A stretch of 55,033 nucleotides of DNA from Candidatus Saccharimonadales bacterium (GTDB lineage Bacteria; Patescibacteriota; Saccharimonadia; Saccharimonadales; JACDBH01). The position numbers were made by a program, and so were the translations under genes. The notes below the pieces were generated by a model. It had not been told where the DNA came from and made no database searches. It saw only the letters and a list, made by a program, of their open reading frames with translations. The stretch spans positions 1-55,033 of the forward strand of contig JBATRZ010000062.1 of the NCBI GenBank assembly GCA_049292975.1, given 5' to 3'. Of this stretch, positions 16,474 to 35,715 are shown piece by piece. Position 1 is the stretch's first letter; each line of letters starts with the position of its first letter.

Positions 16474-16491
16474 TATTTATCCTTAAATTTA

Positions 16492-17136: not shown

Positions 17137-17205
17137 CTTTCATGTCTGCCCTAATCTGGTCGAGCTTAGCTTGTTTGTCTTTTGCACTCACGTGCAGATT
17201 ACCTC

Positions 17206-19768: not shown

Positions 19769-19798
19769 GTAGCCCTTATTTTATCAGATGACAACCCT

Positions 19799-20125
19799 TT
19801 ACGCAAGGGGTGGGAAGCCGTCCTTGTCATTTACCTTGCCGGGGGTGCCGGGAATTATTACTACCGCTCCAAGCTTTTCGAGCCAACTGCTGGCTGCCTT
19901 GGGCTCCATACCGCCCTCGCCCAGATGCGGCCCGTTACCGTCCCGGTGTACGGCACGATAAATACCGCCATTAGAAGGATGCCGTCTTTTGGCCCTTTCC
20001 AATTCGCCGCTTTCGGCAGCACGGTGCAGCCCGTCATGTATCTGGTCTATAGATTCCGGGTCAAAATCTTCACCGGGGTCTCTGTCTTCCCCGCCGGCTG
20101 GATAAAACGGTATGATATCGGCCAT
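19799..20125 (-). CDS. Hypothetical protein (108 aa)
   Basis: ATG-started ORF between truB and rpsO. No motif recognised. Confidence 0.4.
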   Translation of the reverse strand: MADIIPFYPAGGEDRDPGEDFDPESIDQIHDGLHRAAESGELERAKRRHPSNGGIYRAVHRDGNGPHLGEGGMEPKAASSWLEKLGAVVIIPGTPGKVNDKDGFPPLA

Positions 20126-20151
20126 GTACTTATGATTATATAAAAGCCCGT

Positions 20152-20889: not shown

Positions 20890-21093
20890 CTTAGATTCAA
20901 GTATAGCGTAGTCCTTGGGGACGACAGTAAAGCTCGCATTTGGATGCAGGGTGGATTTTCTTGCTGCGAAGCGCAAAGGAGCCGTATTTAAATACGGTGA
21001 CTGACATGGTCTCTTTTTCCTAGCAAGCAAGCTAAGCTTGTTGCTTGAAAAAGCCACGATCTCGCATCGTAAAGCAAAAATCTGCGCTGCGCC

Positions 21094-21139
21094 AAAAGCT
21101 TCAGCAGGTTGTCAGCTCCGCTGACGAGCAGGCTGAAGC
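21094..21139 (-). terminator. Rho-independent terminator after the DHH-like gene
   Basis: On the minus strand, GCTTCAGC...GTCAGC-GGA-GCTGAC...GCTGAAGC is followed by TTTTGG, 10 nt after the stop codon. Confidence 0.6.
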
Positions 21140-21149
21140 GATGCGTGCT

Positions 21150-23114
21150 TTACTGTTGGGGGAACATCGGCGGAGGGATAGGCGGTGGTGGCGGCAACGT
21201 ATTATCATGCTGCTGCGCAGGTGCCGGAGCCGATGGATCAACACCGTTCAAGACAGGTTGCGGCGGCATGGACGGCATGCCAAGCGGCTGGGCGCCCAAA
21301 TCTACCCGCGGCTGCGGGCGGTCCGGATTATAATCTGCCCTACTAATTGCCTCATCTACGGCGTTGCGCGCGGTGTCTACCCCTGCTGCAGGTGCAGGCT
21401 CGCCGTCCATGCCCAAGTGCGGACTGTGGACCGTCTTCTCGATATCCAGCAGGGTCGTTTCGTCAGGGATATCTGGCACTTCGGGCCCGGCTGGAGCTTC
21501 GGGAGCCGGCGGTTGTGCCGGTTGCGGTGCAGCCTCAGGATTGGAAGCCGGCTGTGCACCCGGCGGCATAGGCTGATCGTACGGCGGACCGGCATTTGGC
21601 AAGGTAGGCAGGTCCAGTTCGGGAACCTCCCCGGTTGATTCAGGGAACGGCTGGCCGGGATCGGTCGCCTTGACATCGCTGATCTCAGCGTGAATTTCTG
21701 GACGGGTGAGCAAGCTGCTCAGATTGGCCAGCTCGGCATCCAGGCTAGCGTCGTCCGGCCCCGGTGCGGCCTGCAGCGGGCTAACAACCTTGTGATGCGG
21801 CTGCAGCGGCTTTTCCCTGCGGACCATATTGCCATGCTCGTCAATATGTATAGAACTATCCTTGTCCTCGTGAACGGGCGCGTGCTCTATCGGCGCGAAT
21901 ATGTCTACCGGATTATCAGGCGCTATCAAACCATCCGGCGGCTGGGAGCCAGGCAATAACGGATCATACGATTCTTCCCCTTCAGAAGGCAGCAGCGGAG
22001 AAACAAATGCTTCTTCGTTGCCCTCAATATTATCCATGACCTCAAGCGACGGGTCTTGATGCTGAGGCTCGCTTGGCGGCAGGTACTGGCGCTCCTGCTG
22101 CGGTTTTTCATCCGGCACTTCTGGTAATTCGGCTGTCGGCTGGGCGGCGGCTTCCTGGGGCTGCTGCCGCTCTGTCTGTAACCTCACTTCTTCCTGCTGG
22201 TTGTCATCGTGGTTGATGGTCAGCGAACCATCGTCACTTACGGCGGCGGCCGGCAAAGGCTGCGGCTCGTCATGCGGTACTTCTACCGGCTGATCGGCCT
22301 GCAGCACCTCATCTTTTTGCAGCTCGTTGGCAATCAATTGCTGGTTGGCACCGGCGGCCATCAGCTGCGCGGCCATGGTCATAATCTTCGGGCTGGTCTT
22401 GGCGTTCTTGAAGCGCTCGGTCTCGGCTACGATACCGGTCAAGAAGGCGGTGGCTATCTGTTCATCAATCAGGCCGCCCTGGAATGCCTCAGAGATACTT
22501 ACCAGCATTTCGCTCAAAGAACTGGCAGCGGGCTCCTGCCAATTAAGCGCACCCAGCTCGGACTGGTTCTGCCCGGCCGTGATAGTCACTACGGTAGCAT
22601 CGTGCAGGATACGGCCATGGGCGGTAATAGCCTGGTCCAGCTCATCGCGGACGGTGACACCCAGGGCCATGACTACATCTACGTTAAAATCGCCTTGGGT
22701 AAACTCAAGATCTTGCTCTGATATAGAGGTGCGGTACGGGGTGATAAAGATCTTCACCACGTTTTCTTCCACCTTGTAGCGCAGCTTGTCGGCCTTGCTC
22801 TTATCTAAAGAGACAATGAAGTCGCGTAAAGAATCGGTATTCTGCTCGATGGTGTCCTCGGGCTTTAGGAACTCAAGCGTAGAGGGCACCTTGCCGCTGA
22901 AGACGGCGGTGGCATGCTTGCCCAACTTGTTTAGCATCAGTGTCAGGCCGATGGCGGCCGCCAGCTCGTCTACCGAAGGGTTGGAGCGGACCGTCACCAG
23001 CACATTGGTCGCCTGCTGCACACGGGCAACTACCGACTGCTTCGGTGTCGATTGCCGCTGGTCCTGATCCAGGGATTGATCTTTAAACTGATCTTGTGGC
23101 TGGCTTGGATCCAT
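21150..23114 (-). CDS. DHH/NrnA-like protein with degenerate catalytic motifs and a roughly 380-aa Pro/Gln/Glu-rich tail
   Basis: The N-terminal 270 aa align by eye to the NrnA layout (LVTVRSNPSVDELAAAIGL..., ...TGIVAETERFKN), but the DHH position reads VVMALGV. The rest is low-complexity and proline-rich. Confidence 0.5.
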   Translation of the reverse strand: MDPSQPQDQFKDQSLDQDQRQSTPKQSVVARVQQATNVLVTVRSNPSVDELAAAIGLTLMLNKLGKHATAVFSGKVPSTLEFLKPEDTIEQNTDSLRDFIVSLDKSKADKLRYKVEENVVKIFITPYRTSISEQDLEFTQGDFNVDVVMALGVTVRDELDQAITAHGRILHDATVVTITAGQNQSELGALNWQEPAASSLSEMLVSISEAFQGGLIDEQIATAFLTGIVAETERFKNAKTSPKIMTMAAQLMAAGANQQLIANELQKDEVLQADQPVEVPHDEPQPLPAAAVSDDGSLTINHDDNQQEEVRLQTERQQPQEAAAQPTAELPEVPDEKPQQERQYLPPSEPQHQDPSLEVMDNIEGNEEAFVSPLLPSEGEESYDPLLPGSQPPDGLIAPDNPVDIFAPIEHAPVHEDKDSSIHIDEHGNMVRREKPLQPHHKVVSPLQAAPGPDDASLDAELANLSSLLTRPEIHAEISDVKATDPGQPFPESTGEVPELDLPTLPNAGPPYDQPMPPGAQPASNPEAAPQPAQPPAPEAPAGPEVPDIPDETTLLDIEKTVHSPHLGMDGEPAPAAGVDTARNAVDEAISRADYNPDRPQPRVDLGAQPLGMPSMPPQPVLNGVDPSAPAPAQQHDNTLPPPPPIPPPMFPQQ

Positions 23115-23302
23115 CCCGTTTAGAAACCACTTTCCATTAAATATTGTTTTTCGCCTGAAATTAGAAGCTGGGGTTCAACCGTCTTTAGATATCTGTTACT
23201 TCTTTGGTTTCTAACGGCATTCATTTTTGTTTGTTTATTTTAGTAGTACTTAAGTAGCACATTACCATAAACAATTTGAAAAGTCCAAGGACTTTTTGTT
23301 AA

Positions 23303-23369
23303 GGGTGAAGGGAGTTGGGGTACAGGTTAAAGCAATAATACCAACCCTGCATCCCCTGCCCTGCACCCC
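23303..23369. repeat. Intergenic G-word / C-word imperfect palindrome
   Basis: GGGTGAA GGGAGTT GGGGTAC AGG ... CCCTGCA TCCCCTG CCCTGCA CCCC. Confidence 0.7.
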
Positions 23370-23375
23370 GGCTTA

Positions 23376-23404
23376 TTTACAGATTACGCTCTTCTTGCTA
23401 TAGT
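23376..23404 (+). promoter_or_regulatory. Sigma-70-type promoter of rpsT
   Basis: TTTACA, a 17-nt spacer, then TGcTATAGT (extended -10). It lies 38 nt upstream of the rpsT ATG, which has an AAGAGGA Shine-Dalgarno sequence. Confidence 0.7.
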
Positions 23405-23442
23405 AGCTCTCGAAGTCAAGGAATAACCGTAAGAGGACTAAA

Positions 23443-23790
23443 ATGCCAATTATCAAATCAGCGAAGAAGCGCGTCAAGCAAACCCGCAAAGCGACCGTCC
23501 GCAACGCCCGTACCAAGCGTTCTTTACGCAGCTCGCTCAAGGGCTTTTCAAAAAAGCCAAGCGCAACGTCAAAGTCCAAGGCCGAGAGCAACCTGGACAA
23601 GGCCGCCAAGAAGGGCCTGGTCCACAAGAACAAGGTCGCCCGCAAGAAGCGTCAGCTCGCAGCCAGCGCCAAAAAGGCCGGCGTCAAGCCCGCTGCCGCC
23701 AAGAAGGCCGTAGCCAAGAAAGCGCCTGCCAAGAAGGCAGCCCCAGCTAAGAAACCAGCCGCCAAAAAGGCTCCTGCCAAGAAAAAATAA
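23443..23790 (+). CDS. rpsT: 30S ribosomal protein S20 with Lys/Ala/Pro-rich C-terminal tail
   Basis: MPIIKSAKKRVKQTRKATVRNARTKRSLRS is the bS20 N-terminus. The C-terminal 40 aa are AKKA/PAKK repeats. Confidence 0.9.
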   Translation: MPIIKSAKKRVKQTRKATVRNARTKRSLRSSLKGFSKKPSATSKSKAESNLDKAAKKGLVHKNKVARKKRQLAASAKKAGVKPAAAKKAVAKKAPAKKAAPAKKPAAKKAPAKKK

Positions 23791-23829
23791 ACAGCCTTCG
23801 GCTAATATTTGATACTTGATATCTAATAA

Positions 23830-23853
23830 ACCGCCCCAACAGGGGCGGTTCTT
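23830..23853 (+). terminator. Rho-independent terminator of rpsT
   Basis: ACCGCCCC-AACA-GGGGCGGT followed by a T-rich tail. Confidence 0.7.
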
Positions 23854-23871
23854 AATAATCCGTAAAATCCC

Positions 23872-23925
23872 CATCTGTAAAAGGTCAGACCCTTGGGTCT
23901 CCTTCCTTGGGTCTCCTTCAAGCCA
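23872..23925. repeat. Diverged inverted-orientation copy of the ATCTGTTAAGGGTCAGACCCTT element, with its own 14-nt tandem word
   Basis: CATCTGTAAAAGGTCAGACCCTT, then GGGTCTCCTTCCTT GGGTCTCCTTCAAG. Confidence 0.6.
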
Positions 23926-24145
23926 ACTCTCAATTCCCTCCCGAATTCATTTTGGGAATTGAGGGCGAACCCTTGCGGTCGTTCTTGCTGCGCGTCAGCC
24001 CGGCCAATTATTTCAATTGTGTTTGCAGTGGGCGCGAGTTCTTTTGCAAACTTTTCTGTCTTACCCCAAGCAACGGGTTGCTTGGGGACCCCGCTGTCGA
24101 TACAGAAAAGTATGGACTTGCTTCTTCGTCTGAAGAAGTTATTGG

Positions 24146-25060
24146 CTAGATAGTAAGGAGGAAGTGCTGCACGGCGTCGTCGGCGTCTATCATCTCTGAT
24201 TTTAACCGCACGTCCAGCGCCAGTGCCCTGTCTACCAGATCCTTGACCTGTTTTTGCGACAAATTGTGTGTAAGATTGAGGGTTTTGTGCACAACGTATG
24301 GATTGAGCTTGGCGGTGCGGGCTATTTCGTCCGCGCCGTCGCTCTCGTTGAACTTGACCACCGCCAGCACATGCACCTGCCAGGCAATCATGCCCATGAT
24401 GGCCTGCGGCTCTACTGCTTGCTTGCGCTGGTCCTGGTACAGCTCCAGCACGCGCCGCTTGTTGCCCGCGAAGGCGGCATCTATCAGGTCGAACACACTG
24501 CTCCCCGGCAACGGTTCGGTAAGCAGGTCTATGCTGGCCTTCGTAACCTTGTCTTCATACAGCAGCAGCTTGTCCAGCTCGTTACTTAGGCTCATCTGAT
24601 TAGTGCCAAGCCGCGACACCATGTAGCTAGCATCCGTCATTGTCAGGCTGCCGCCGCGCGCCCTGGCCTCGCCTACCAGCCAGGCCGCCAGGCCGCGCTC
24701 GTCAAGCTCAGTGAATTCACGCAGCTCGGCACGCTTCTTGAGCGTCTTATACAGGCCCAGGCGCTTATCGAACTTGCGCTCGTTAATAATAAGATCGGTG
24801 GTATCAGCAACGGCATCCAGCAGCTTGCCGGGGTCATCGGCCAGCGCTTTGTTGGCGGCGGGACTTAAAAGCATTATCATCCGGCGCGGCGCTAAAAAAG
24901 GCAGGCTGGACACGCTCTCTAGCAGGCGGCCGAATTCCACATCACCAGCGTCAATTGTTTCCAGCCCAAAATCGCCATGCTCGGCTACGAAACCAGCCGT
25001 AAGCTTCTTCAGCTCAGCACTGCGGGCAAAATCATTACTGCCGGTTAAAACAAGTATCAT
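24146..25060 (-). CDS. holA: DNA polymerase III subunit delta
   Basis: The N-terminus MILVLTGSNDFARSAELKKL...LESVSSLPFLAPRRMIML and the overall 304-aa helical layout are typical of HolA. Confidence 0.8.
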   Translation of the reverse strand: MILVLTGSNDFARSAELKKLTAGFVAEHGDFGLETIDAGDVEFGRLLESVSSLPFLAPRRMIMLLSPAANKALADDPGKLLDAVADTTDLIINERKFDKRLGLYKTLKKRAELREFTELDERGLAAWLVGEARARGGSLTMTDASYMVSRLGTNQMSLSNELDKLLLYEDKVTKASIDLLTEPLPGSSVFDLIDAAFAGNKRRVLELYQDQRKQAVEPQAIMGMIAWQVHVLAVVKFNESDGADEIARTAKLNPYVVHKTLNLTHNLSQKQVKDLVDRALALDVRLKSEMIDADDAVQHFLLTI

Positions 25061-25064
25061 TTAT

Positions 25065-25087
25065 CAATTCACATTTCACATTTCACA
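25065..25087. repeat. Left inverted-repeat arm bracketing four-helix-bundle gene 2
   Basis: CAATTCACATTTCACATTTCACA is complementary to 25477-25499 at 22 of 23 positions, with a 17-nt perfect core. Confidence 0.9.
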
Positions 25088-25095
25088 TTAATGTA

Positions 25096-25458
25096 TCATT
25101 TGCCATTTTTCAGTGTAGAAATGATTTTCTGCAAGATGAAAAGCAGCTGGCTTACCTCATCTATTTCATTATGACAGGAAAAATTCTCATTGGCTTCCTG
25201 TAGGAGCCTTAGCCAGTAGCGCGTTTCTGCAGCTTCTTTCTTGGCTATGAATATTTTATTTCTAAAATCCAAGCGGGATGCGGCATTGTTTGCCTCTGTA
25301 TAATTGGCCCCGATACCGGTTGCAGAACGGATTAATTGGGTCTTGATGATTCTGTTCTCTGAGGTTTCTGGCAAAGGTTTCACAAGCCGTATGATCTGAA
25401 GCGAGAACTTAATTGTACGCTCCTCTAATTCTTTGGATCTGCCTTGTGAATTGTCCAT
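25096..25458 (-). CDS. Four helix bundle protein (23S rRNA intervening-sequence protein family)
   Basis: ...FSLQIIRLVKPLPETSENRIIKTQLIRSATGIGANYTEANNAASRLDFRNKIFIAKKEAAETRYWL fits the PF05635/TIGR02436 pattern. The gene is low-GC. Confidence 0.85.
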   Translation of the reverse strand: MDNSQGRSKELEERTIKFSLQIIRLVKPLPETSENRIIKTQLIRSATGIGANYTEANNAASRLDFRNKIFIAKKEAAETRYWLRLLQEANENFSCHNEIDEVSQLLFILQKIISTLKNGK

Positions 25459-25476
25459 TGTGAAATTATTGTGAAT

Positions 25477-25499
25477 TGTGAAATGTGAAATGTAAATTG
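25477..25499. repeat. Right inverted-repeat arm bracketing four-helix-bundle gene 2
   Basis: TGTGAAATGTGAAATGTAAATTG, made of heptamer words TGTGAAA. Confidence 0.9.
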
Positions 25500-25564
25500 C
25501 TCATGCTTCCTCTGCGAGAATTTTTACGGTGGGGTTGTAGCATGGGCGTATACTTGATTGCGAC

Positions 25565-27715
25565 ATGAGCTCCACCATCATCGTTTCCAACCGTCTGCCT
25601 GTAAGTGTCAAAAAAACCAAGAACGGCCTGGAATTCTTTACCAGTGCGGGCGGCCTAGCCACCGGTCTTGGGTCGTATGCCGCCCGGCGTGACAGTGTTT
25701 GGATTGGCTGGCCCGGTATCGTCTCTGACGGATTGAGTCTTAAGGAACTAAGAGAGATTACCGAGGGGTTAAAGAAGTACAAGTGCAGCCCCGTCTTCTT
25801 GACCCAAAAAGAAGTAAACGAATTCTATAGCGGCTACAGCAACGCCCTGCTTTGGCCATACTTTCATACCTTGCCTGCCGATAAAAAAGCCGGCAAGCAC
25901 TGGCGTGCCTATCAGGATATCAACGCCCGTTTTGCTGCCAGCGTGGAGGAAATCGCAGACCAGGACAGCAGCATCTGGGTGCATGATTACCAGCTGCTGC
26001 TGGTGCCCGCCCTGCTGCGCTTGCAGCGGCCGCGGGCGACGATTGGCTTTTTCTTGCACATACCGTTTCCGGCGGCGGAGCATTTTGCCGCCCTGCCCCA
26101 TGCCCGCGAGCTTATCCGCGGCATGCTGGGGGCCGATCTGGTTGGCTTTCACACCGATGCTTACACAAAAGATTTCCTAGATACCTGCAGCACGCTGCGT
26201 ATCGGCACGCCAGCCAAAGGCGGCCTGGCCACGCGCGGCCGGCCTGTGCGCGTGACCAGCTTTCCTATCGGCATAGATTATGACAAGTTCGCACTCTCCG
26301 GCCGCAGCCGCAGCGTCCAGATTGCACAGCGCAAGCTAGAACGCAAATACAAGGATGCCAGCGTCATCCTGACGGTAGACCGCCTTGATCCGACCAAGGG
26401 TTTTATTGAACGCCTGCAAGCCTACCGCACCATGCTGGAGCAAAGCCCAAAGTTGCATGGTAACGTCATCATGGTCATGCTGGCAGTGCCGTCACGCAGT
26501 GATGTAGAAGCTTACCGGAAGCTGAAGTCTCGGGTAGACAAACTGGTCCATGATATCAATGACGCGTACGGCACACGCAGCTGGCAACCGGTGGAGTACC
26601 GCTATGAATCAGTGGAGTTTGATGAGCTGGCTGCCCTGTACCGCGTAGCCGATGTCGCATTTGTGGCACCCTTGCGGGACGGCATGAACCTGGTTGCCAA
26701 AGAATTCGTAGCCAGCCAAAGCAGCCATAAAGGCATTCTGGTCTTAAGTGAAACGGCAGGTGCTGCCGAGGAACTGCGCGATGCCCTGCTGGTGAATCCC
26801 GGCAAACCCAAGGCTATGGTCCGCGCCCTTACCCGCGCCCTGGCAATGCCCAAATCCGAGGTGCGTACCCGCGTCAAAGCTATGCAGGACGTGCTGGCCG
26901 CCAACACCATCCACACCTGGGCCAATTCCTTCATGCGCACGCTCAACTACAACAATGTCCGCGGCCTGGCTAGGATAGAGGGCACCATGAAGCTGGCATT
27001 CGGAGTGGCCGGGCAGCGCCTGTTGCTGTTCGATTATGACGGCGTGCTGGTACCTTTCGCACCTACGCCAGGATTGGCCAAGCCGTCTGCCAAGCTCCGC
27101 AGCACGCTGGCCCGGCTGGCAAGCGCCGGTAATACCGATGTGGCTATCATCAGCGGCCGCGACGGCCCGACACTAGAAGCCTGGCTGGGCGATATCAACC
27201 TAACGCTCATCGCCGAACACGGTGCCAAGATTAAACTGCCGGCCGGGCCTTGGCAAGAACTCGCCGAAACCAGTGATAACTGGAAAAAGACAGTGCGGCC
27301 AGTGCTTGAACGCTACGCCCGCCAGACTCCAGGTGCTTTTGTCGAGGAAAAAACTTATTCGTTAGTTTGGCATTACCGCAATGCAGCACCCTATGCGGCT
27401 CAGAAAGCCATTGCCCGCATGCAGACCACCCTGCCTAGCCTGCTGAAGCCTTGCGGCATGCGCCTGTACCGCGGCAACATGATACTGGAGATCAAGAATC
27501 CTGCTATCAATAAGGGCAGCGCCGCTAAGCGGATGCTTACCCGGCATTATGATTTCATCATGGCCATCGGCGATGATTTTACGGACGAGGACATGTTTGC
27601 CGCCCTGCCATCGGACGCCTGGACAATAAAGGTCGGCCCGGGCCGCACGGCCGCCAAAATGCGTGCGCGTGACGTAAACCAGATCCGGGCGCTCCTCAAT
27701 AACCTGGCCGGATAG
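25565..27715 (+). CDS. otsA: Bifunctional trehalose-6-phosphate synthase / trehalose-6-phosphate phosphatase (OtsA-OtsB fusion)
   Basis: N-terminal GT20 domain (IIVSNRLPV...GGLATGL...VHDYQLLLVP...FFLHIPFP...DGMNLVAKEF) and a C-terminal HAD phosphatase (LLLFDYDGVLVP...GDDFTDEDMF). Confidence 0.9.
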   Translation: MSSTIIVSNRLPVSVKKTKNGLEFFTSAGGLATGLGSYAARRDSVWIGWPGIVSDGLSLKELREITEGLKKYKCSPVFLTQKEVNEFYSGYSNALLWPYFHTLPADKKAGKHWRAYQDINARFAASVEEIADQDSSIWVHDYQLLLVPALLRLQRPRATIGFFLHIPFPAAEHFAALPHARELIRGMLGADLVGFHTDAYTKDFLDTCSTLRIGTPAKGGLATRGRPVRVTSFPIGIDYDKFALSGRSRSVQIAQRKLERKYKDASVILTVDRLDPTKGFIERLQAYRTMLEQSPKLHGNVIMVMLAVPSRSDVEAYRKLKSRVDKLVHDINDAYGTRSWQPVEYRYESVEFDELAALYRVADVAFVAPLRDGMNLVAKEFVASQSSHKGILVLSETAGAAEELRDALLVNPGKPKAMVRALTRALAMPKSEVRTRVKAMQDVLAANTIHTWANSFMRTLNYNNVRGLARIEGTMKLAFGVAGQRLLLFDYDGVLVPFAPTPGLAKPSAKLRSTLARLASAGNTDVAIISGRDGPTLEAWLGDINLTLIAEHGAKIKLPAGPWQELAETSDNWKKTVRPVLERYARQTPGAFVEEKTYSLVWHYRNAAPYAAQKAIARMQTTLPSLLKPCGMRLYRGNMILEIKNPAINKGSAAKRMLTRHYDFIMAIGDDFTDEDMFAALPSDAWTIKVGPGRTAAKMRARDVNQIRALLNNLAG

Positions 27716-27742
27716 AATTGTTCTTTGATCTTCGGACGCCGC

Positions 27743-28705
27743 CTAGACAGACTGGCAACGGGGGCAAGTATGGGTGCCGCGGCCGGCAACTTTGGTTTTG
27801 ATAATAACCGTGCCGGGGTGGCGCGGGCAGTCCTTGCCCTCACGCCGGAACACACGGGCAAAATCTATGTAGCTCCCCTTCTTACCCTCGGCATTCACGT
27901 AATTCCTGTCCGTCGAACCGCCCTTTTCTATAGCTAATTCCAGTACTAGCCTAAGCTCAGAATATAGAATATAGATTTTGGATTTTGGAATATCGGCCAC
28001 TTTGCTTGCGGGGTGGATTTTGGCGCCCCAAAGTGATTCGTCGGCGTAGATATTGCCTACTCCGGCCAAGACAGTTTGATCGAGTAATGCTGCTTTGATG
28101 GACGTCTTTGCCCTTTTTTGCAAACGTTCGTAGAGAATTTTGGCGGTAAACTCATCACTCAGCGGCTCGGGCCCCACCTTCTTGAAGAAGTCTATATTTG
28201 GCACCTCAACAGTTGGCAACAGCCGCATCCAGCCAAACTTCCGCTGGTCATTAAAATACATGTGAGAGGACTGTCCTCTCACATCTTCGAGGTGGAGGGT
28301 TGCGCGGGTGGATTTGTCTGGCAATCTGCCGATGAGACTGTCGTTGGGATGCCCTGCCCCAAACCGCTCCTCTGGAGTAAAGTCCTTGGTCTTTAGTCTT
28401 CCGTCTTCAGTCTTGACTGGTGACCGCTGACTGGTGACCGCTGACTCCCGTTTACGCACGTAAACAAGCTGGCCCGTCATCTTCAAGTGAATTACCAGGC
28501 TGTAGCCAGAGTCTAAATCTATTATTAAAACTTTGGCACGACGGCGTACATCAATAATTTGTGCGCCAATTAAAAACTGCGCTACATCACCCGGCGCATT
28601 GGGAAAAGACTTGGGCCAATCAAAATCTACTGATTTGACCGTTTTGCCAATAATTAATTTATGCAAGCCACGCCGGACAGTCTCTACCTCTGGTAATTCA
28701 GGCAT
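27743..28705 (-). CDS. mutM: Formamidopyrimidine-DNA glycosylase (Fpg/MutM) with in-frame insertions
   Basis: MPELPEVETVRRGL, H2TH (LLDQTVLAGVGNIYADESLW), and a C-terminal zinc finger CPRH...CPRCQ. About 50 aa longer than E. coli Fpg. Confidence 0.9.
   Translation of the reverse strand: MPELPEVETVRRGLHKLIIGKTVKSVDFDWPKSFPNAPGDVAQFLIGAQIIDVRRRAKVLIIDLDSGYSLVIHLKMTGQLVYVRKRESAVTSQRSPVKTEDGRLKTKDFTPEERFGAGHPNDSLIGRLPDKSTRATLHLEDVRGQSSHMYFNDQRKFGWMRLLPTVEVPNIDFFKKVGPEPLSDEFTAKILYERLQKRAKTSIKAALLDQTVLAGVGNIYADESLWGAKIHPASKVADIPKSKIYILYSELRLVLELAIEKGGSTDRNYVNAEGKKGSYIDFARVFRREGKDCPRHPGTVIIKTKVAGRGTHTCPRCQSV
27959..27993. repeat. Heptamer tandem array in mutM coding sequence
   Basis: AGAATAT AGAATAT AGATTTT GGATTTT GGAATAT, encoding PKSKIYILYSE on the minus strand. 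Confidence 0.85.
28262..28282. repeat. 21-nt perfect palindrome GTGAGAGGAC-T-GTCCTCTCAC, in frame in mutM
   Basis: Read directly from the sequence. Encodes VRGQSSH. The flanking bases extend the palindrome to ATGTGAGAGGAC.GTCCTCTCACAT. Confidence 0.95.
28389..28445. repeat. Heptamer-periodic module, in frame in mutM
   Basis: GTCTTTA GTCTTCC GTCTTCA GTCTTGA C, then TGGTGAC CGCTGAC TGGTGAC CGCTGAC. 57 nt, equal to 19 codons. Confidence 0.85.
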
Positions 28706-28711
28706 GTACTC

Positions 28712-28720
28712 ATTGTACCA
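28712..28720 (-). promoter_or_regulatory. Extended -10 promoter element abutting the mutM start codon
   Basis: On the minus strand, TGGTACAAT is followed by GAGTAC and then the ATG at 28705. No Shine-Dalgarno sequence. Confidence 0.45.
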
Positions 28721-28841
28721 GCCGCGCGTTCCGCACTTGAGCCGGTCTTGGTGCGGTTTTTGAGAAACGTTAATAGGAGCCGTACTGGGGTAAGGTGACT
28801 GGCATGGTCTATCTGTTGCCTGCCGGCGCAGAGCGCCTAGC

Positions 28842-29765
28842 TCAGGCGGCGGACTTGGCGCTGTCGCGGCGCTGCTGTATTTGCACCAACTCGCTCGTCA
28901 TCTTCAGTGCCAGCTTGGCAACTTTGTGCGGATGCATCTGCGGGGTCAGGTGGCCGGCACCGCGGTCGGGATAAACCTGGAACAGGTCGAATATCCTGCC
29001 CCCGTCGGTGCCCTGCTCTACTAGTTTTAGGGGGAATAGCTCATCTCCGCCAAACTGCAGGGCGCCGCTTGGTATGCCTAGCTCACGAAGCCGCGCCGGG
29101 CGGCCGGTAATGTCGGCCGAGGCAATACGTACCGCTTCTTGACGGGCTTTGCCGGGATTTTGCCAGACATAGTTGGATGATGCGCGGACTATGCCCAGAC
29201 CGTAAGCGGGGTGGCTGGCCATCTCCCAGGTCAGTCGGGTAAAGACGCCGGGATTGCGCAGGGCGCGGCCAAGTATCCTGCGGGCATTGTCGTTCTTGAT
29301 AAGCCCGCCCGAACCCATCACCACTAGCGAACGGAATTCACCCGGGTGTTCCAGGCACGCCCGGCTGGCATTAGCCCCGCCCTCCGAATGGCCTTTGGCA
29401 TCTACTTTTTGCAAGTCCGGCATCAGCGCGCGTGCCGCGCCAAGCACTAGCATACCGGTGTTTACCTTATGGCCCTCGGGGTCATCCAGGAAGTCCGGAT
29501 GCATGATACGCGGGTAACCCAGCGTTATCGCCACCCTGCCGGCTACGGCATAGGCATTGGTCAGGCGGTCTGTACCTTCTATACCGTCAGTAAAGCCGGG
29601 GAACACTTCGATAGGGTGGTCGGACACTGGCTCAAACGGCCGTTTTACCGTAAACAATATCTGCTCGTGCGGTGTGGCAATCTGCCCTACGCCTACCTTA
29701 TACAGTAGCGGCCTGTCCTCGGGCAGCCATTGGAATTCATGCGTGATTTCCGGCATTGCAGCCAT
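28842..29765 (-). CDS. Alpha/beta-hydrolase-fold protein
   Basis: Nucleophile elbow GHSEGG. The length and secondary-structure pattern fit an alpha/beta hydrolase. Confidence 0.6.
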   Translation of the reverse strand: MAAMPEITHEFQWLPEDRPLLYKVGVGQIATPHEQILFTVKRPFEPVSDHPIEVFPGFTDGIEGTDRLTNAYAVAGRVAITLGYPRIMHPDFLDDPEGHKVNTGMLVLGAARALMPDLQKVDAKGHSEGGANASRACLEHPGEFRSLVVMGSGGLIKNDNARRILGRALRNPGVFTRLTWEMASHPAYGLGIVRASSNYVWQNPGKARQEAVRIASADITGRPARLRELGIPSGALQFGGDELFPLKLVEQGTDGGRIFDLFQVYPDRGAGHLTPQMHPHKVAKLALKMTSELVQIQQRRDSAKSAA

Positions 29766-29926
29766 AATTTAAGCTAATTGTATGCTAGCTTAGGCATTTT
29801 ACAAGCAGATTATGCGTACATTTGTCCGCCTGTAGATATGTATATAGCGTAACTTTACTTAAGAATACGATCTTATCTTTTTGTCAATTTATTAATACAC
29901 ACCTCTGTTACATTAATAGTATACTG

Positions 29927-30172
29927 ATGATACATATGGATTCGCTTCAAGACATCTTAGGCCGCCGGCAATTCGACGAACCGCCGGAGATTCAAGCAAT
30001 CAAGACTTTTGTGCGCAAAAATTTTAGCACCGATGTAGGGGTGCATGTCGGTCCGCACAGTATCACGGTCACTACGCCGTCCGCCAGTTTGGCAGGCAGT
30101 TTGCGCCCCCTGACGCACAAGCTAAAAAAAGATCTAGGTATTGATAAGAAAATATTTATCCGCATTGGTTAA
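29927..30172 (+). CDS. DUF721/DciA-like small protein
   Basis: ...VGVHVGPHSITVTTPSASLAGSLRPLTHKLKKDLGIDKKIFIRIG resembles the DUF721 core. The track ORF starts with TTG far upstream, so ATG 29927 or 29936 is more likely. Confidence 0.4.
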   Translation: MIHMDSLQDILGRRQFDEPPEIQAIKTFVRKNFSTDVGVHVGPHSITVTTPSASLAGSLRPLTHKLKKDLGIDKKIFIRIG

Positions 30173-30211
30173 GTGACATAAATCACTGTAGCTCCCATAT
30201 ATGCGTGTAGA

Positions 30212-31132
30212 ATGAGGCCTATGGCTGAGAGAGTTATATTTTCCGACCTAGGCGAGCATGACGAAATGTTCCTGAGCGAGCTGAGCGGCCGCATTGAGGC
30301 CCTGGCTGGCGACCATGCCGGTTCAGAAAAAGAGTACGACCCATACGAGTTCGTGGACGAGATGGACCAAGCCATTGCCGACGGCACACTGGACCTGGAT
30401 GATCCCGGCGCACAGCTGGACGAAGCCACCAAAGCCGCGCTGATAGTAAACCTGATTACAGAAGAAGGCATCCCAGAATACACCAGTACTATCCAGCGCA
30501 GACTGCCTTTCAACCATCCGCTGCGGCACTGGTCCCACCTGTGGACGGCCGACGAAGGCCGCCACGGGCCAACCATTGCCAATATTTTGCATCGTACCAA
30601 GCAGTTCAGCATGCGCGAACTTGAGCGTATGCGCATGGCCATGATGCGCTACCCTGATACGCCTCAGCCCGCCTCAGTTATCGAGAGTGTGGTGTATCCC
30701 GGCATCCAGGAACCCGCTACCGAGATAAGCCACCGCAATACCATGCGGCGTTTCCCGCGGGCGCTGGTAATCGCCAGGCGCGCTATAGGCCGCGTAACAC
30801 ACGATGAGGTCCGCCACGGCGGTTTCTACGCCGGCGTAGCCGAGGCAGCCATGGAAGTTAATCCGTCAGTGGTTGTCATCGCGGCAGGCCGCCAGGTGCG
30901 TGATTTTGCCATGCCCGGCAAAAGTATGCCCGGTTTTGAGGAGCGCGCCAGGATTATCAGGGAGGCCGATATTTTCGGCCCGCGCCAGCTGCGGCAGATT
31001 TATGATGATTTCTTGGTTAATAGGCTTGGTATCTTCCGCGCCGAGGGGCTATCGCCCGAGGCAGAAAAAGCCCGTGATTTCATAGCCAAGAGGCTTAAGC
31101 TGCTCGACAGGCTCAGCCGGACAGCCGGCTAA
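30212..31132 (+). CDS. Acyl-ACP desaturase family di-iron protein
   Basis: WTADEGRHG and HDEVRHGGFY correspond to the two (D/E)ExxH di-iron motifs of soluble acyl-ACP desaturases (WTAEENRHG type). The start could be 30212 or 30221. Confidence 0.7.
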   Translation: MRPMAERVIFSDLGEHDEMFLSELSGRIEALAGDHAGSEKEYDPYEFVDEMDQAIADGTLDLDDPGAQLDEATKAALIVNLITEEGIPEYTSTIQRRLPFNHPLRHWSHLWTADEGRHGPTIANILHRTKQFSMRELERMRMAMMRYPDTPQPASVIESVVYPGIQEPATEISHRNTMRRFPRALVIARRAIGRVTHDEVRHGGFYAGVAEAAMEVNPSVVVIAAGRQVRDFAMPGKSMPGFEERARIIREADIFGPRQLRQIYDDFLVNRLGIFRAEGLSPEAEKARDFIAKRLKLLDRLSRTAG

Positions 31133-31153
31133 CTACCGGCTTGCAATATTTTA

Positions 31154-31729
31154 CTAATTATTTTCGTAAGCTAAGAAGGTTCTTACCATTTTAATGGTGT
31201 GCTTGTTGCCCAGGTACGCGATGGCCTTTATGCCCGATTGCGCGGCGGCCAGGCAATTGATGGCTGTATCGTCAATAAAGATGCATTCCTCCGGCCGCAG
31301 TGCCAGGCGGCGGGCTGCCAGAGCAAAGATTTCCGGATCTGGTTTGACCAGGCCGACTTCGCTGGATATAACAATATCGTCAAACATGCGCTTTTGCTCA
31401 TCCGCGTCAAAAAACCGGCCGATGGCATCCTTGCTGACATTGGTTAATACCGATACCTTGTATTCGCTGCGTAGTTCGGCAACATAGTCTAGCAGCTCTT
31501 GGTTGCGGTGATAGAGCGTTGTTTCATCACTGATTCGTCCGGGCGTGGAACCAGTGAGCTTTGCCACCTTGGTATTAAACTCTTCTTCGTTTATCGCGCC
31601 CAGGTCGGCTTCTCGCTCCAGGTCGTCAATCTGCTGCTGCACGGCCCTATCATGGCCAGATTTATAAGACTCATGACCCTGCCGCTGCAATAAAACGCCA
31701 AAGCAATCAAATATTATAGCCTTAATCAT
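31154..31729 (-). CDS. HAD-superfamily hydrolase (subfamily IA-like)
   Basis: Motif I IIFDCFGVL and motif IV-like FIDDTAINCLAA. Confidence 0.8.
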   Translation of the reverse strand: MIKAIIFDCFGVLLQRQGHESYKSGHDRAVQQQIDDLEREADLGAINEEEFNTKVAKLTGSTPGRISDETTLYHRNQELLDYVAELRSEYKVSVLTNVSKDAIGRFFDADEQKRMFDDIVISSEVGLVKPDPEIFALAARRLALRPEECIFIDDTAINCLAAAQSGIKAIAYLGNKHTIKMVRTFLAYENN

Positions 31730-31870
31730 GTTGTATCTATATTACCCTATTTCCTTAGTGCTATCATGAGCTAACCTGTCCGGGCGGTAACGTCTGGTTG
31801 CAGTTTTATTACTCTGCCAGCTCCTTGGCTGATTTGTTGTACTTGTCCAATGCTACACCGTATATATGGT

Positions 31871-32263
31871 TCAGGACTTTTGCTTATCAGAAGACTGGCC
31901 GCTAACTTCTGATTCTATGAGTTCCAGCAGGCTGGCTGGCGTAATATTGGCCTTGAGCACGTTCATGCGCGCCCCAAGCTCCAGCGCTTCCTTGATCTCC
32001 CCGCCCAAGGCCAGATTGGACATGACGATGATTTTTGTTTTAGGTGATGTATGCTTGAGATCCGCGAGTTTCAGGAATTCCACACCGTTGCAAACCGGCA
32101 TCATGATATCCAGCAGTATCAAGTCGTAGGAGTGTTTCTTGCACAGCTGCAGGGCTTGCCGGCCGTTGCGGGCGGTATCTACCTGGTACGAGTGCATCTT
32201 TAGGACTATGCCTATCGGCTCGCTAATGACATCCTCGTCCTCAACCAATAAGACCCGCGGCAC
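31871..32263 (-). CDS. Response regulator, receiver domain only
   Basis: RVLLVEDED...DLILLDIMMPVCNG...KIIVMSN. GTG start overlaps the kinase stop codon (TAGTG), with a GGAAGGAGA Shine-Dalgarno sequence upstream. Confidence 0.85.
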   Translation of the reverse strand: MPRVLLVEDEDVISEPIGIVLKMHSYQVDTARNGRQALQLCKKHSYDLILLDIMMPVCNGVEFLKLADLKHTSPKTKIIVMSNLALGGEIKEALELGARMNVLKANITPASLLELIESEVSGQSSDKQKS

Positions 32264-33432
32264 TATATGTCTCCTTCCGGCAATCTTATAGTAAAGGCCG
32301 TGCCCTTGCCTTTTTGCGATTCCAGCTCTATGGCACCATCATGCAGCTTGATAATCTTATCCGCCCAGTACAAGCCCAGCCCGCTGCCCGATACCTTTTG
32401 GGTTAGTTTGTTGTTGGCGCGGCCGAACTTCTCGAATATTTTAGACTGGTCTTTCTTGGCAATGCCCACGCCGTTATCTTCGATGGATATATATACATCC
32501 CCACTCTCTTCTCGCACACTCACGGTAATATTGCCCTTGTCGGGCGTGTACTTGCTGGCGTTGTCTATGAGGTTTTCGATGACCATCCTCAGCCGCACTT
32601 TGTCTATATTGGCTCGTATTGTTTTGGCAGGCGATTTGTAGGCGACGCCCTGGTTCCTGCCTTTGAACGAATCAACCTGCTCATCAATAACATCTGCCAC
32701 CAGCTCGCCGATGTCTGTCACTGTCTTTACCAGAATCACCTTGCCGGCGTCCACTTGGGCAACACGCAGCAGGTCGTTTACGATTTCTATCTGGCGGTCA
32801 TTGCTGGCATAGGCTTTGTGCAAATAATCCATTTGCAGTTCGCTAAGCGGCCCCGCGTAACCCTCTAGCAGCAGATTAAGGTACTGCTTGACGCCGGTAG
32901 CCGGCGTGCGCAGCTGGTGGGACGCTAAAGATATAAACTCGTCTTTGGTGGCGCTCAGAGCCTGCAACTCCTTGTACGAGGCCTCCAGCCGGACATTGGC
33001 CTTGTACAGATTGTCTTCGTACTTTTTGCGCTCGGTCAGATCACGGGTTACCTTGGCAAAACCAATGTGATTACCTTCCGTATCGAATAACGCGGTAATA
33101 ATAACATTGGCCCAGAACCGCGTGCCATCCTTGCGTACGCGCCAGCTCTCGTCCTCGACGCGGCCTTCTTTCATGGCCACTTCCAGCTCCCATTCGGGTT
33201 TCTTGTTCTGCTTGTCTATAGGGGTGTAGAAGATAGAGAAGTGCTTGCCGATGATTTCATCGGGCAGGTAACCCTTGAACCGCTGCGCGCCCGTATTCCA
33301 GCTGGCGATGTGCCCAGTGGTATCAAGATGGAATATGGCGTAGTCCTTGATGGTCTCAACCAGCAGGCGGTAGCGGTCAAGCTCGCGCGTGTTGCTTATG
33401 CTGACTTGTTTTTTGGTTTGCTTAACGGGCAA
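32263..33432 (-). CDS. PAS-domain sensor histidine kinase (no TM segment)
   Basis: PAS (IASWNTGAQRFKGYLPDEIIGKHFSIFY), H-box SHQLRTPAT, and N/G boxes (NLIDNASKYT, GSGLGLY). TTG start preceded by an AGGAGGA Shine-Dalgarno sequence. Confidence 0.85.
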   Translation of the reverse strand: MPVKQTKKQVSISNTRELDRYRLLVETIKDYAIFHLDTTGHIASWNTGAQRFKGYLPDEIIGKHFSIFYTPIDKQNKKPEWELEVAMKEGRVEDESWRVRKDGTRFWANVIITALFDTEGNHIGFAKVTRDLTERKKYEDNLYKANVRLEASYKELQALSATKDEFISLASHQLRTPATGVKQYLNLLLEGYAGPLSELQMDYLHKAYASNDRQIEIVNDLLRVAQVDAGKVILVKTVTDIGELVADVIDEQVDSFKGRNQGVAYKSPAKTIRANIDKVRLRMVIENLIDNASKYTPDKGNITVSVREESGDVYISIEDNGVGIAKKDQSKIFEKFGRANNKLTQKVSGSGLGLYWADKIIKLHDGAIELESQKGKGTAFTIRLPEGDI

Positions 33433-33768
33433 CGCCAGTCCTCCTGCTTACTACCACCTTGGTTACACTTGTCATTGTACCAGCGCGGTTTTTCCATACA
33501 AAGGACAAACATACTATCCGGCGTTAGATAGCAGCAAGAATAATCATCACGATATAAAAAGAAAAGAAATAAATCATCTGCGTAATCCAGAACTTCTGCT
33601 TACCCATAAATAGGGGCGAGAAATACAGCTGCTCACTGTACAGCAAATAACCGTGCATTGTATTTGTAATCAAAAACGACAAAAACAGGCTAAGTAGTAT
33701 TGTTTAAGAATAGAGATGATAGACCTGTGTTTCTAGGAGATCAAATACGCATGTGAGATATTTAATTT

Positions 33769-34623
33769 ATGGCAAAAAAGAAAAGTCAAAAAACAAGCGC
33801 GCCAATTCCCCCAATACTTAGGCTTCTACCTAACACGCCTAAATCTCAACCCGGAAAAGCAAGCAAATATGCAAAACTAATCTGGCCATTTTGGATTCTG
33901 TTATTGATAGCTTTGGCGCTATATGCGCACATCTTCCTTAAATATGGCGGTTTGCAAGGCTACCGGCTAGAATCCGCAAGGTTTCCTGGCATAGAAAGCG
34001 CAGAGATCGCGAGCGTAAGGGATAACACCTTGGCGTATGTGAATGATTTGAATGGCAAAATCGGGCCAAATTCGGACATGGCAGCCACATATGCCTCCCC
34101 ACTACAGACTGCTGACCTTTGCGAAAAAGGCAAACACGAGAATCCCACCTTTAAGTTTAAAGGCCGTTACGACAACTGGGCGTATAGCTGCAAAATTAGT
34201 ACAATGCAATATTTTGTTTACGACAAACCTTTCTGCGAAGTAGCGGCCGGTCTTGTCGCGCAGAAACTCCCATTCATGACATACCAGAAGAAGTATGACT
34301 GCAGGCAAAGCGTACCTGAAATAGGTGAGGGCTTAAGCTTCTTTTCCTATGATGACCCAACGCCTGCCCATGAATCATATCCCAAGCTGCTACATATGAA
34401 CTTCAGGCTAAAGGATTTAGACGAGTTCAATATATCATTAGGCCCATATGGGACGGGTTTTCCCGACATATTCTTCAACTGCTCCTACAACATAGAACGA
34501 ACCGCGTATTGTTCAGACAAGCAGGTTGATAAACAATACCGCCAAGAAATACTGTTACTGCCAGCCGAAAGCAGCAGAACGATCATCGAAGCCAATTACG
34601 ATAAAACATATTATGAGAAATAA
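33769..34623 (+). CDS. Membrane-anchored Cys-rich hypothetical protein (AT-rich gene)
   Basis: Lys-rich N-terminus, one TM helix (LIWPFWILLLIALALYAHIF), and a Cys-containing extracytoplasmic domain. GC content is clearly below the backbone. Confidence 0.5.
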   Translation: MAKKKSQKTSAPIPPILRLLPNTPKSQPGKASKYAKLIWPFWILLLIALALYAHIFLKYGGLQGYRLESARFPGIESAEIASVRDNTLAYVNDLNGKIGPNSDMAATYASPLQTADLCEKGKHENPTFKFKGRYDNWAYSCKISTMQYFVYDKPFCEVAAGLVAQKLPFMTYQKKYDCRQSVPEIGEGLSFFSYDDPTPAHESYPKLLHMNFRLKDLDEFNISLGPYGTGFPDIFFNCSYNIERTAYCSDKQVDKQYRQEILLLPAESSRTIIEANYDKTYYEK

Positions 34624-34662
34624 CGGATGAACGTGCCTAAGAAGCAGTATTGTCCCTGCCCT

Positions 34663-35118
34663 TCAATCTGAGGCTGAATTATCAGCGGTACGATTTGGAA
34701 ACGTAAAATAAGTCTTGCCCGTCTTATAGGATTCGGCATAGGCCGTAAAGCATCCGAAGAGATTATCAGGCAGATTTTCTAAATCATACCAATCCCATGA
34801 CTCAAGCTTCTCGGGCTCCAAGACTTGAGGGTCACCCGCTTCCCAATCAGCCGCAAAACCGAAGTCTACATAATGCTTCGGGAAATACTTCAGCAGATCC
34901 GATACGCATAGCAGCCTCAGATTAGTGACCTTTATGCCACATTCTTCGGCTATCTCACGTAAGGCCGTCTGCTCGGCTGTTTCGCCGTATTCCAAATGTC
35001 CCCCAGGCCCGCCGTATTCGTTTGCACCATGGGCATTCTTACGTTTGCCCAAGAGGACTTTGCCGTCCTTCACTACGAATACGCCCACGCCCACCTTAAC
35101 TTTCTGCTCTTCACTCAT
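34663..35118 (-). CDS. NUDIX hydrolase
   Basis: Nudix box GGPGGHLEYGETAEQTALREIAEECGI. Confidence 0.85.
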   Translation of the reverse strand: MSEEQKVKVGVGVFVVKDGKVLLGKRKNAHGANEYGGPGGHLEYGETAEQTALREIAEECGIKVTNLRLLCVSDLLKYFPKHYVDFGFAADWEAGDPQVLEPEKLESWDWYDLENLPDNLFGCFTAYAESYKTGKTYFTFPNRTADNSASD

Positions 35119-35147
35119 AGCCGTAGTCTACCACCCCCTATAAAATC

Positions 35148-35672
35148 CTACTTTAAACTCGATAGGAAGTGCTTTACAACCCTGGAACTACGGAGTGTTA
35201 CGATCTTGTCTTTGGGATACTTACTAAGCTCGGCCCGTATGACCGGGGACTGCTCCCTGCTGAAGTTCAGGACGTATTTGAGGAAGCCTGGGTCTATTCT
35301 TTCATTCCAACTTTCGGGCATTTCTTCACGGATCTTGTTGCGATACTGCACTCGCCGTTTGAAGATGCGGTAGACATAAACGCTCGGTGGAAGGTCAAGA
35401 TAAATCGTCAGGTCTGCCATGGGTACGCGGAAATCCAGCGTAAATTTGTAGACACCTTCCATAATCCACTTCTCCGCCTTAGCCTCCTGCTTAATCTTTT
35501 TGATGAAGCCTGGCCTGTCCTCCAAAAAATAATATGTCTCGGAAAATGCAATCTTATCCATATGAATAATCGGTAATTCATACGCTTTGGCTAGTTTCCG
35601 GGCCAAAGTAGTCTTGCCCGAGCCTGGCGGCCCGATAATATTGATCCGCTTGTACTTCATTCGCTCAAGCAT
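35148..35672 (-). CDS. P-loop kinase, adenylate-kinase/topology-modulation (FlaR)-like
   Basis: INIIGPPGSGKTTLARKLA...IHMDKI. ATG at 35672 follows a GGAAGGA Shine-Dalgarno sequence. Confidence 0.6.
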   Translation of the reverse strand: MLERMKYKRINIIGPPGSGKTTLARKLAKAYELPIIHMDKIAFSETYYFLEDRPGFIKKIKQEAKAEKWIMEGVYKFTLDFRVPMADLTIYLDLPPSVYVYRIFKRRVQYRNKIREEMPESWNERIDPGFLKYVLNFSREQSPVIRAELSKYPKDKIVTLRSSRVVKHFLSSLK

Positions 35673-35715
35673 ACCATCCTTCCGAAAATAACAGATGAAA
35701 AACCAAAAAGCGGAA

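Follow-up and report, generated by a model that had tools for sequence, protein, structure and literature searches.

We analyzed a 55,033-nucleotide (nt) stretch of DNA from a Candidatus Saccharimonadales bacterium (contig JBATRZ010000062.1, positions 1 to 55,033), hereafter called the window, in which a short perfect palindrome lies inside mutM, also called fpg. The palindrome recurs in the same reading frame in unrelated genes of the window and of other Saccharibacteria, and in related genomes it brackets the gene for a Y1 transposase. It is most probably a hairpin element of the repetitive extragenic palindromic (REP) type, belonging to a system of REP and REP-associated tyrosine transposase (RAYT) that is native to Saccharibacteria (Saccharimonadales). 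The claim is that this system works like REP/RAYT systems, not that it is a canonical member of them; its dispersed copies differ from those of such systems in being mostly intragenic, in having no sequence tag and in being singlets.

Three perfect copies of a palindrome in the window

Window positions 28262-28282 read GTGAGAGGACTGTCCTCTCAC, a 21-nt palindrome inside mutM/fpg. In this copy the arms extend to a perfect 12 nt (ATGTGAGAGGAC at 28260-28271 and GTCCTCTCACAT at 28273-28284), giving a 25-nt palindrome at 28260-28284. An earlier reading of the window, made from the sequence alone (the sequence-only reading), had described sequence, coordinates and arms correctly. The 12-nt arm is not special to mutM: the copies that flank the transposase in relatives have a 25-nt consensus of the same form, ATGTG...CACAT. 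The 23-mer TGTGAGAGGAC-W-GTCCTCTCACA is present three times in the window, with the 21-nt palindromes at 3872-3892, 28262-28282 and 45361-45381. The chance level for three copies is 0.01 expected, and none of 100 dinucleotide-preserving shuffles reaches three. The copies, for which no strand is assigned, are as follows.

28261..28283, probable REP-type palindrome TGTGAGAGGAC-T-GTCCTCTCACA, read on the minus strand as V142-RGQSSH148 of Fpg
3871..3893, second copy TGTGAGAGGAC-A-GTCCTCTCACA, read as VRGLSSH in the hypervariable loop of a TlyA/FtsJ-like rRNA methyltransferase
45360..45382, third copy TGTGAGAGGAC-T-GTCCTCTCACA, read as VRGQSSH in the DnaG linker between the zinc ribbon and the RNA-polymerase core

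All three copies share one reading frame, giving VRG(Q/L)SSH, and the choice between Q and L is set solely by the central base. The window has no degenerate copies (up to 5 substitutions) and no lone half-sites. The arms of the window copies are 11-12 nt long and 100% complementary. Either strand folds as a DNA hairpin of 10-11 bp (-10 to -10.6 kcal/mol, z -3.9 to -6.0); for the mutM copy as single-stranded DNA, the values are -10.4 to -10.6 kcal/mol and z about -5.6 to -6.0. No Rfam family matches anywhere in the window (1..55033) at gathering thresholds.

Every protein variant within 90% identity in NCBI, ENA and Logan assemblies keeps the motif (six Fpg, three TlyA-like and five DnaG). The tlyA copy is identical in three independent contigs, one of which is the 471-kb ENA NODE_1, with an overall DNA identity of 99.9%. 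Since the sampled strains are 99.9% identical and the copies are fixed and identical in all of them, they are uninformative on strain polymorphism. A fixed perfect palindrome at scattered sites could resemble a ligated linker, but an artefact of assembly, linker or adaptor is virtually out of the question. The same placement is found in independent samples and assemblers (ENA SPAdes NODE_1, ENA MEGAHIT k141, Logan and NCBI), and the independent assemblies exclude such an origin. Furthermore, variants of the palindrome co-vary with the neighboring gene across species, and the copy in dnaG leaves the length of that gene unchanged (see below).

Two further perfect 24-nt palindromes, ATGAGAAAACCT/AGGTTTTCTCAT at 6274-6297 and GCAAAAGTTTGA/TCAAACTTTTGC at 36514-36537, occur once each and stand outside the repeat family.

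The copy in Fpg maps to a predicted hairpin tip

The host gene of the first copy is intact.

27743..28705, minus strand, fpg/mutM, 320 amino acids (aa), with Pfam domains Fapy_DNA_glyco, H2TH and zf-FPG

Translation of 27743..28705 gives ...LHLED-VRGQSSH-MYFNDQRKFG at the palindrome, the same peptide as in the sequence-only reading. In an AlphaFold2 (AF2) model of Fpg, strands 133-140 and 146-153 are connected by the turn D141-VRGQ145, with a predicted local distance difference test (pLDDT) score of about 90 locally. By this model, the palindrome encodes the tip of the β-hairpin ahead of the NDQRKFG motif, and the earlier placement of the heptapeptide in a β-hairpin before D.RkFG agrees with it.

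The spacing from DKSTR to [FY]NDQRKFG is 12 residues in 110 of 114 Fpg orthologues outside the species and 16 residues in the window species, a net gain of 4 aa (12 nt). The SSH part of the heptapeptide aligns with native [KG]S[HNK] of the orthologues and with GSE of B. stearothermophilus MutM. The expectation that homologues have no such residues is supported. Orthologues outside the species are without the heptapeptide, which is thus not a conserved feature of the Fpg subfamily. The sequence-only reading had also looked to a presence or absence of exactly 21 nt in close relatives; the net changes are instead +12 nt in fpg and 0 in dnaG.

Fpg carries two tandem modules as well. Tandem Repeats Finder reports a 7-nt array of GTCTTCA at 28389-28414 (3.7 copies, 84% matches) and a 14-nt unit TGACTGGTGACCGC at 28414-28446 (2.4 copies, 100% matches). 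Both correspond to Fpg residues about 84-113, a low-complexity insert after strand QLVYV, and orthologues hold 0 to about 60 aa at this insert point. The insert is a separate length-hypervariable hotspot, unrelated to the palindrome. The modules had been counted with the palindrome as three repeat-derived segments of mutM, the two modules being taken as heptamer-periodic; both exist, but with periods of 7 and 14 nt and in an insert of their own.

The copy in DnaG replaces native linker codons

The host genes of the other two window copies are complete, as judged by domain search.

43885..45666, minus strand, dnaG (primase), 593 aa, all domains present
3380..4297, minus strand, tlyA-like S4 + FtsJ methyltransferase, 305 aa, complete domain set

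DnaG orthologues were retrieved by a chimeric query of five host segments; DnaG matches dominated, and the result was hence used for DnaG alone. Between the anchors D[LM]xxF and [KR][ED][RQ][LM]Y lie 10 residues in 72 of the 90 sequences that have both anchors (five of the 90 come from the window species), and the window species likewise has 10. In the codon alignment, 24 nt replace 24 nt, corresponding to eight native linker codons, and the net length change is 0.

A degenerate copy, TGCGAGAGGTCCGTCCTCTCACA, is found in DnaG P0261 of locus L019 (JGI Ga0613827_009300, 3287-3309). It matches at 19/23 nt, reads ARGPSSH and lies in the same linker, displaced by one codon with respect to the window copy; the linker is also 10 residues long. 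The window DnaG is 77.8% identical to that of L019 and 82.9% identical to P0255, which has no element. Common ancestry of the two DnaG copies is disfavored, because the element is missing from closer relatives and the two copies differ in register by one codon. The L019 copy looks like a second, apparently independent strike on this permissive linker. Recombination carrying over a short patch is another possible source of the likeness between the two.

The loop of the TlyA-like protein is too variable in length among 18 orthologues for a net change to be scored. Elsewhere in this protein, residues about 192-250 form a segment of ~58 aa (ELQRPSRLDAEAVFSSRNGGGSIDD...ARRSLH) between the conserved motifs KPQFE and KGVIKN, and the segment is absent in 18 of 18 aligned orthologues.

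Copies in other Saccharibacteria share the reading frame

We scanned genome and metagenome collections for exact matches, with one genome per species; family counts are thus lower bounds. Further exact copies of the palindrome are found only in metagenome-assembled genomes (MAGs) and metagenome contigs of Saccharibacteria. The viral contigs of IMG/VR hold no exact copy, and a phage origin was rejected on this ground. Five of the loci, numbered L001 to L005, are as follows.

L001, GTDB representative MAG, palindrome in frame in ArgRS
L002, GTDB representative MAG, palindrome intergenic, between tgt and nrdR
L003, Saccharimonadales MAG, palindromes flanking a Y1 transposase open reading frame (ORF)
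L004, JGI metagenome contig, palindrome in frame in MnmA
L005, JGI metagenome contig, palindrome in frame in a MurE-type ligase

Seven perfect copies do not adjoin a RAYT gene, and all except that of L002 lie within long ORFs of known housekeeping proteins. The intragenic copies sit in protein loops or linkers. Their net length changes are about +1 in ArgRS, at most +5 in MnmA and +5 to +6 in MurE, all approximate, as only distant PDB homologues serve for comparison. Host-gene orthologues were also sought in the related loci collected for the palindrome and RAYT, and none was found there.

The frame VRGxSSH is used in 7/7 intragenic copies (Fpg, TlyA-like, DnaG, ArgRS, MnmA, MurE and the degenerate copy in L019 DnaG), with p about 0.008 on the assumption that two open frames are equally likely. 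Of the remaining frames, the second gives CERTVLS and the third holds a TGA stop. The shared frame, the stability of the hairpins and an enrichment of the hosts for nucleic-acid enzymes (Fpg, DnaG, ArgRS, MnmA, TlyA-like) would be consistent with selection on the heptapeptide or the mRNA hairpin itself, as a functional peptide module, a translational pause or a regulatory hairpin. We consider this highly improbable. The hosts have no pathway step in common, and the sites affected, loop tips and linkers, are not known to take part in catalysis. The same DNA is found extragenically as well, between tgt and nrdR in L002 and at the RAYT flanks, and Rfam gives no match. The frame bias is explained more simply by the stop in one frame and the Cys-rich, hydrophobic-rich peptide in the other.

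The positions of the copies are lineage-specific, and relatives that bear the same palindrome elsewhere have no copy at the dnaG and fpg sites. Between genomes whose host proteins share only about 70-80% identity, the dispersed copies remain identical, and this argues for recent activity or homogenization, not for old neutral scars. Were the copies inert relics of one old burst, no longer mobile in the window species, one would expect several things that are in fact seen: tblastn finds no RAYT gene in the window, the copy density is low, the copies are fixed and identical in every sampled strain, and the DnaG of L019, another lineage, holds a decayed copy (19/23 nt). Neutral relics this old would be expected to differ by now, however, and nine dispersed copies from about four genomes are all perfect at 23/23 nt. 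In addition, different genomes have different sites filled (dnaG here; argS, but not dnaG, in the CAZXOA MAG), indicating activity after the lineages split. We therefore regard inert relics as unlikely.

The flanks of the nine copies have neither a target-site duplication nor a shared flanking motif, except for a T...A that belongs to the palindrome itself, and there are no direct repeats and no internal region. A MITE (a small transposable element with terminal inverted repeats) is ruled out on these grounds.

The palindrome brackets a RAYT-like transposase gene

In L003, a 209-aa ORF with a Y1_Tnp domain (Pfam, 37.3 bits vs a cut-off of 23) is bracketed by the palindrome, with one copy 2 nt past the stop codon, one overlapping the ATG and one 63 nt further upstream. 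In L006, whose protein is 80% identical to that of L003, 2 + 2 copies surround the Y1_Tnp gene. The same palindrome flanks the Y1/HUH gene in L003 and L006-L008, and cognate palindrome families do so in L009, L011 and L014-L016.

Homologues of the L003 protein in Saccharibacteria number in the thousands. Across 30 homologues, residues H77 and H79 of the HUH motif are invariant and Y120 is nearly invariant. With an AF2 model of the RAYT-like protein (pLDDT 81), the top PDB match in Foldseek is 4ER8, E. coli RAYT in complex with a REP hairpin (E = 3e-5, template modeling (TM) scores 0.52/0.64), and the TnpA proteins of ISDra2 and IS608 score below it.

We fetched seven loci with 62-100% protein identity. 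The order folD, racemase, mur ligase (minus strand), Y1_Tnp is the same in all of them, and a response regulator (minus strand) follows in six of the seven, the exception being L009. No tnpB gene neighbors Y1_Tnp at these loci. The Y1_Tnp gene occurs once in six of the seven, and L009 has a second paralogue. The fixed neighborhood points to a vertically inherited gene, unlike an insertion sequence.

Palindromes of 23-25 nt, built on the common scaffold TGTG-xx-AG...CT-xx-CACA, bracket the Y1_Tnp gene in 7/7 loci. On the upstream side it is always the second copy that overlaps the start codon (...CACATGCCA), and a downstream copy overlaps the stop codon or follows within about 20 nt. The inner stem varies by lineage yet stays complementary (GGAC/GTCC, GGTT/AACC, GATC/GATC). 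Among 17 distinct flanking copies, 90% of cells pair, and four pairs are altered on both sides. The covariation score is 0.214; shuffles give 0.105 (1/500), and slid partners do not exceed 0.093.

In other lineages, extra copies within 10 kb of the RAYT gene are intergenic. Inverted doublets resembling REPINs occur in the related palindrome families of L011 and L016; that of L016 at 2247-2296 is intergenic and lies 7.7 kb from the RAYT-like gene. The second Y1_Tnp paralogue of L009 (GCA_016187125.1, 14435-15119) lies 4 kb from the syntenic one, between copies of another palindrome, TGCTACAAGGAT-A-ATCCTTGTAGCA, which contains GTAG; a third copy of this palindrome is intergenic at 5717-5739.

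The sequence-only reading had raised the question whether an encoded restriction-modification or HNH protein cuts or binds the palindrome. Nothing points there, although the window ORFs were not scanned for such proteins; the associated protein in relatives is an IS200-like Y1/HUH transposase.

The element also reads TGTGA-N13-TCACA, whose outer pentamers TGTGA/TCACA equal the half-sites of E. coli CRP. It could accordingly be the binding site of a cellular DNA-binding protein, kept by selection at the DNA level and not mobile. The candidate is a CRP/FNR-family regulator near tlyA, a protein with cNMP_binding and HTH_Crp_2 domains (ORF 2656..3306) whose gene directly adjoins the gene of the tlyA copy. 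Heptamer arrays with TGTGAA in two intergenic regions of the window would fit an operator, as would the perfect, undecayed state of all copies. The spacing, though, is 13 nt, vs 6 nt in CRP sites (TGTGA-N6-TCACA), and six of the seven dispersed copies lie deep within coding regions of unrelated housekeeping genes, not in promoter regions. Moreover, copies bracket the start and stop codons of the Y1 transposase in every related genome and co-vary with the gene, and the sites filled in one lineage (dnaG, fpg) are empty in others that have the palindrome elsewhere. An operator is thus very unlikely.

Proposed mechanism and points against it

By analogy with E. coli TnpA-REP and IS200/IS605 TnpA, a RAYT-like enzyme would recognize the hairpin extruded on single-stranded DNA. 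It would cleave and rejoin at the foot of the hairpin, seeding copies elsewhere in the chromosome. We infer from this analogy that RAYT mobilizes the copies, and by such a route. Selection may have shaped the pattern of frame and length. Most landings would be genic, because about 88% of the window is coding. The copies that persist would be those that keep the reading frame and add a stop-free, small, polar peptide, VRG(Q/L)SSH, to tolerant surface loops or linkers. Acquisition would be of a replacement type, in which the 23-24-nt element displaces 0 to about 24 nt of native sequence, so that loop length stays near the tolerance of the protein. The length pattern could result from a replacement reaction or from insertion plus compensating deletion; both yield the same picture.

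Several observations weigh against a REP/RAYT system. For the L003 ORF, the best NCBIfam model is REP_Tyr_transpos, but its score of 40.8 bits is under the curated cut-off of 80. Sequence searches of the PDB do not reach E. coli RAYT: phmmer gives no matches, and a profile of 30 sequences reaches only the HUH region of ISDra2 TnpA (E = 0.2). The link of the protein to 4ER8 is thus one of predicted fold alone. As the 55-kb window has no RAYT gene detectable by tblastn, the link to RAYT comes from other genomes with the identical palindrome. In addition, ATGTGAGAGGACWGTCCTCTCACAT contains neither GTAG nor CGTC, the tags of published REP super-families (PMC3733652), nor their complements CTAC and GACG. 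The dispersed copies are not extragenic as those of REP/RAYT systems are (6/7 are intragenic); those of the window palindrome family are singlets, with no REPIN doublets seen among them; and they are sparse, with only 3 copies per 55 kb here and about 1 per 38 kb in another MAG. The net changes of 0 (dnaG) and +12 nt (fpg) misfit a fixed-length, IS608-type peel-and-paste reaction without an added deletion. By our own reasoning, a hairpin of 23 nt is also too short for the single-strand circle intermediate of IS608.

A further reading of the mechanism, which we offer tentatively and to which we give a modest chance, is that the RAYT-like enzyme uses a fixed 23-24-nt cassette to overwrite short chromosomal stretches, and that it does so repeatedly in the same tolerant protein loops. 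It is suggested by the two apparently independent hits on the DnaG linker, 3 nt apart and both with zero net length change.

Implications

To our knowledge, work on REP/RAYT systems has been confined almost entirely to Proteobacteria, and the way in which REPs spread is still unsettled. A divergent, structurally RAYT-like gene with co-evolving hairpins in Saccharibacteria would extend the system to the candidate phyla radiation (CPR). The mobile unit would be a bare 23-nt hairpin, which narrows the possible mechanisms and makes a convenient oligonucleotide substrate. Most copies are translated inside essential genes (mutM, dnaG, argS, mnmA, murE, tlyA-like) and may represent a route for mobile DNA to reshape protein loops, a parallel to the Rickettsia palindromic elements (RPEs), here with an identifiable enzyme. 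In annotation, a perfect palindrome or VRG(Q/L)SSH in such proteins should not be taken for a conserved functional motif. Overwriting of short stretches, if true, would mean that a domesticated transposase generates protein-loop variation in minimal genomes, and it would provide a tractable experimental handle on the mechanism of REP dispersal.

Heptamer arrays in the window

Short tandem arrays with a 7-nt period are frequent in the window, within genes as well as in intergenic DNA (Tandem Repeats Finder; 4881, 17049, 20347, 25068, 25444, 28389, 36444 and 36485). A gene of the 23S_rRNA_IVP family (Pfam, 62 bits; ORF 25096..25458, minus strand) lies between inverted heptamer arrays at 25068-25089 and 25444-25499, with (TTCACAT)x3 on one side and (TTGTGAA/ATGTGAA)x8 on the other. 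This heptamer equals the foot of the REP consensus (ATGTGAA / TTCACAT). The orthologue of the gene in L013 has other heptamers, of the TCAATTA type, at the same places. Another array, TTGTGAA-ATGTGAA-TTGTGAA at 7131-7151, lies about 40 nt downstream of the gene for ribosomal protein S6 (7191..7571, minus strand). This array may be bound by the CRP-family regulator (2656..3306), or it may be kin of the REP foot.

Comparison with known systems

The system is closest to the REP/REPIN-RAYT systems of Proteobacteria (E. coli TnpA-REP with REP/BIME; Pseudomonas REPINs). As in those systems, a short palindrome that forms a stable hairpin makes up a dispersed family, and cognate copies bracket a Y1/HUH gene that has a conserved neighborhood and is usually present once. 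The palindrome diverges together with its transposase, some lineages (L011, L016) have inverted doublets, and the best structural match is 4ER8. The system differs in its phylum, Saccharibacteria/CPR, and we found no literature linking REP, RAYT or REPIN with Saccharibacteria, Patescibacteria or CPR. The RAYT-like protein has diverged too far to pass the NCBIfam RAYT cut-off. The element is a perfect palindrome of 23-25 nt with a single central base, unlike published REPs, and the start and stop codons of RAYT lie within or abut the flanking copies. The copies are mostly intragenic singlets at low density, whereas those of Proteobacteria number in the hundreds and are extragenic. RAYT biology is treated in PMC5581495.

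REP units within ORFs of known proteins, many of them for replication or repair, have been described in Opitutus terrae, Thioalkalivibrio and others (Di Nocera et al. 2013, PMC3733652). The copies reported here resemble them in lying within ORFs, in the prevalence of replication and repair proteins and in being read through in frame. The published units carry GTAG or CGTC tags, are often dimers, encode 20-30 aa and are described as insertions; ours are single 23-nt units that encode 7 aa and replace native codons (DnaG 0, Fpg +4 aa).

RPEs are likewise palindromic repeats in the reduced genome of a host-dependent bacterium, in frame and in surface-exposed segments of functional proteins. RPE-1 is about 100-150 bp long (30-50 aa). 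The element described here is 23 nt long and has a cognate RAYT-like gene in relatives; this size and the cognate Y1 transposase disagree with RPE membership, and the in-frame intragenic location agrees with it. RPE-4 and RPE-6 correspond to REPs with a CGTC tag, a class that has no known dedicated transposase, and the insertions of RPE-1 are longer (PMC3733652).

With the IS200/IS605 family (IS608, ISDra2), the system shares the Y1/HUH fold with its HUH motif and catalytic Tyr and, putatively, recognition of hairpin ends. In contrast, the gene is syntenic, usually single-copy and without tnpB, the repeated unit is a bare hairpin, and the acquisitions are not of fixed length. An autonomous IS200/IS605 element is ruled out by the syntenic gene, the lack of a tnpB neighbor, the hairpin-only repeat and the net changes of 0 and +12 nt. 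The kind of element is thus already known, and the differences from published systems lie in the phylum, the divergent protein, the absence of a tag, the single central base, the position of the RAYT start and stop codons, the intragenic majority and the apparent replacement-type acquisition.

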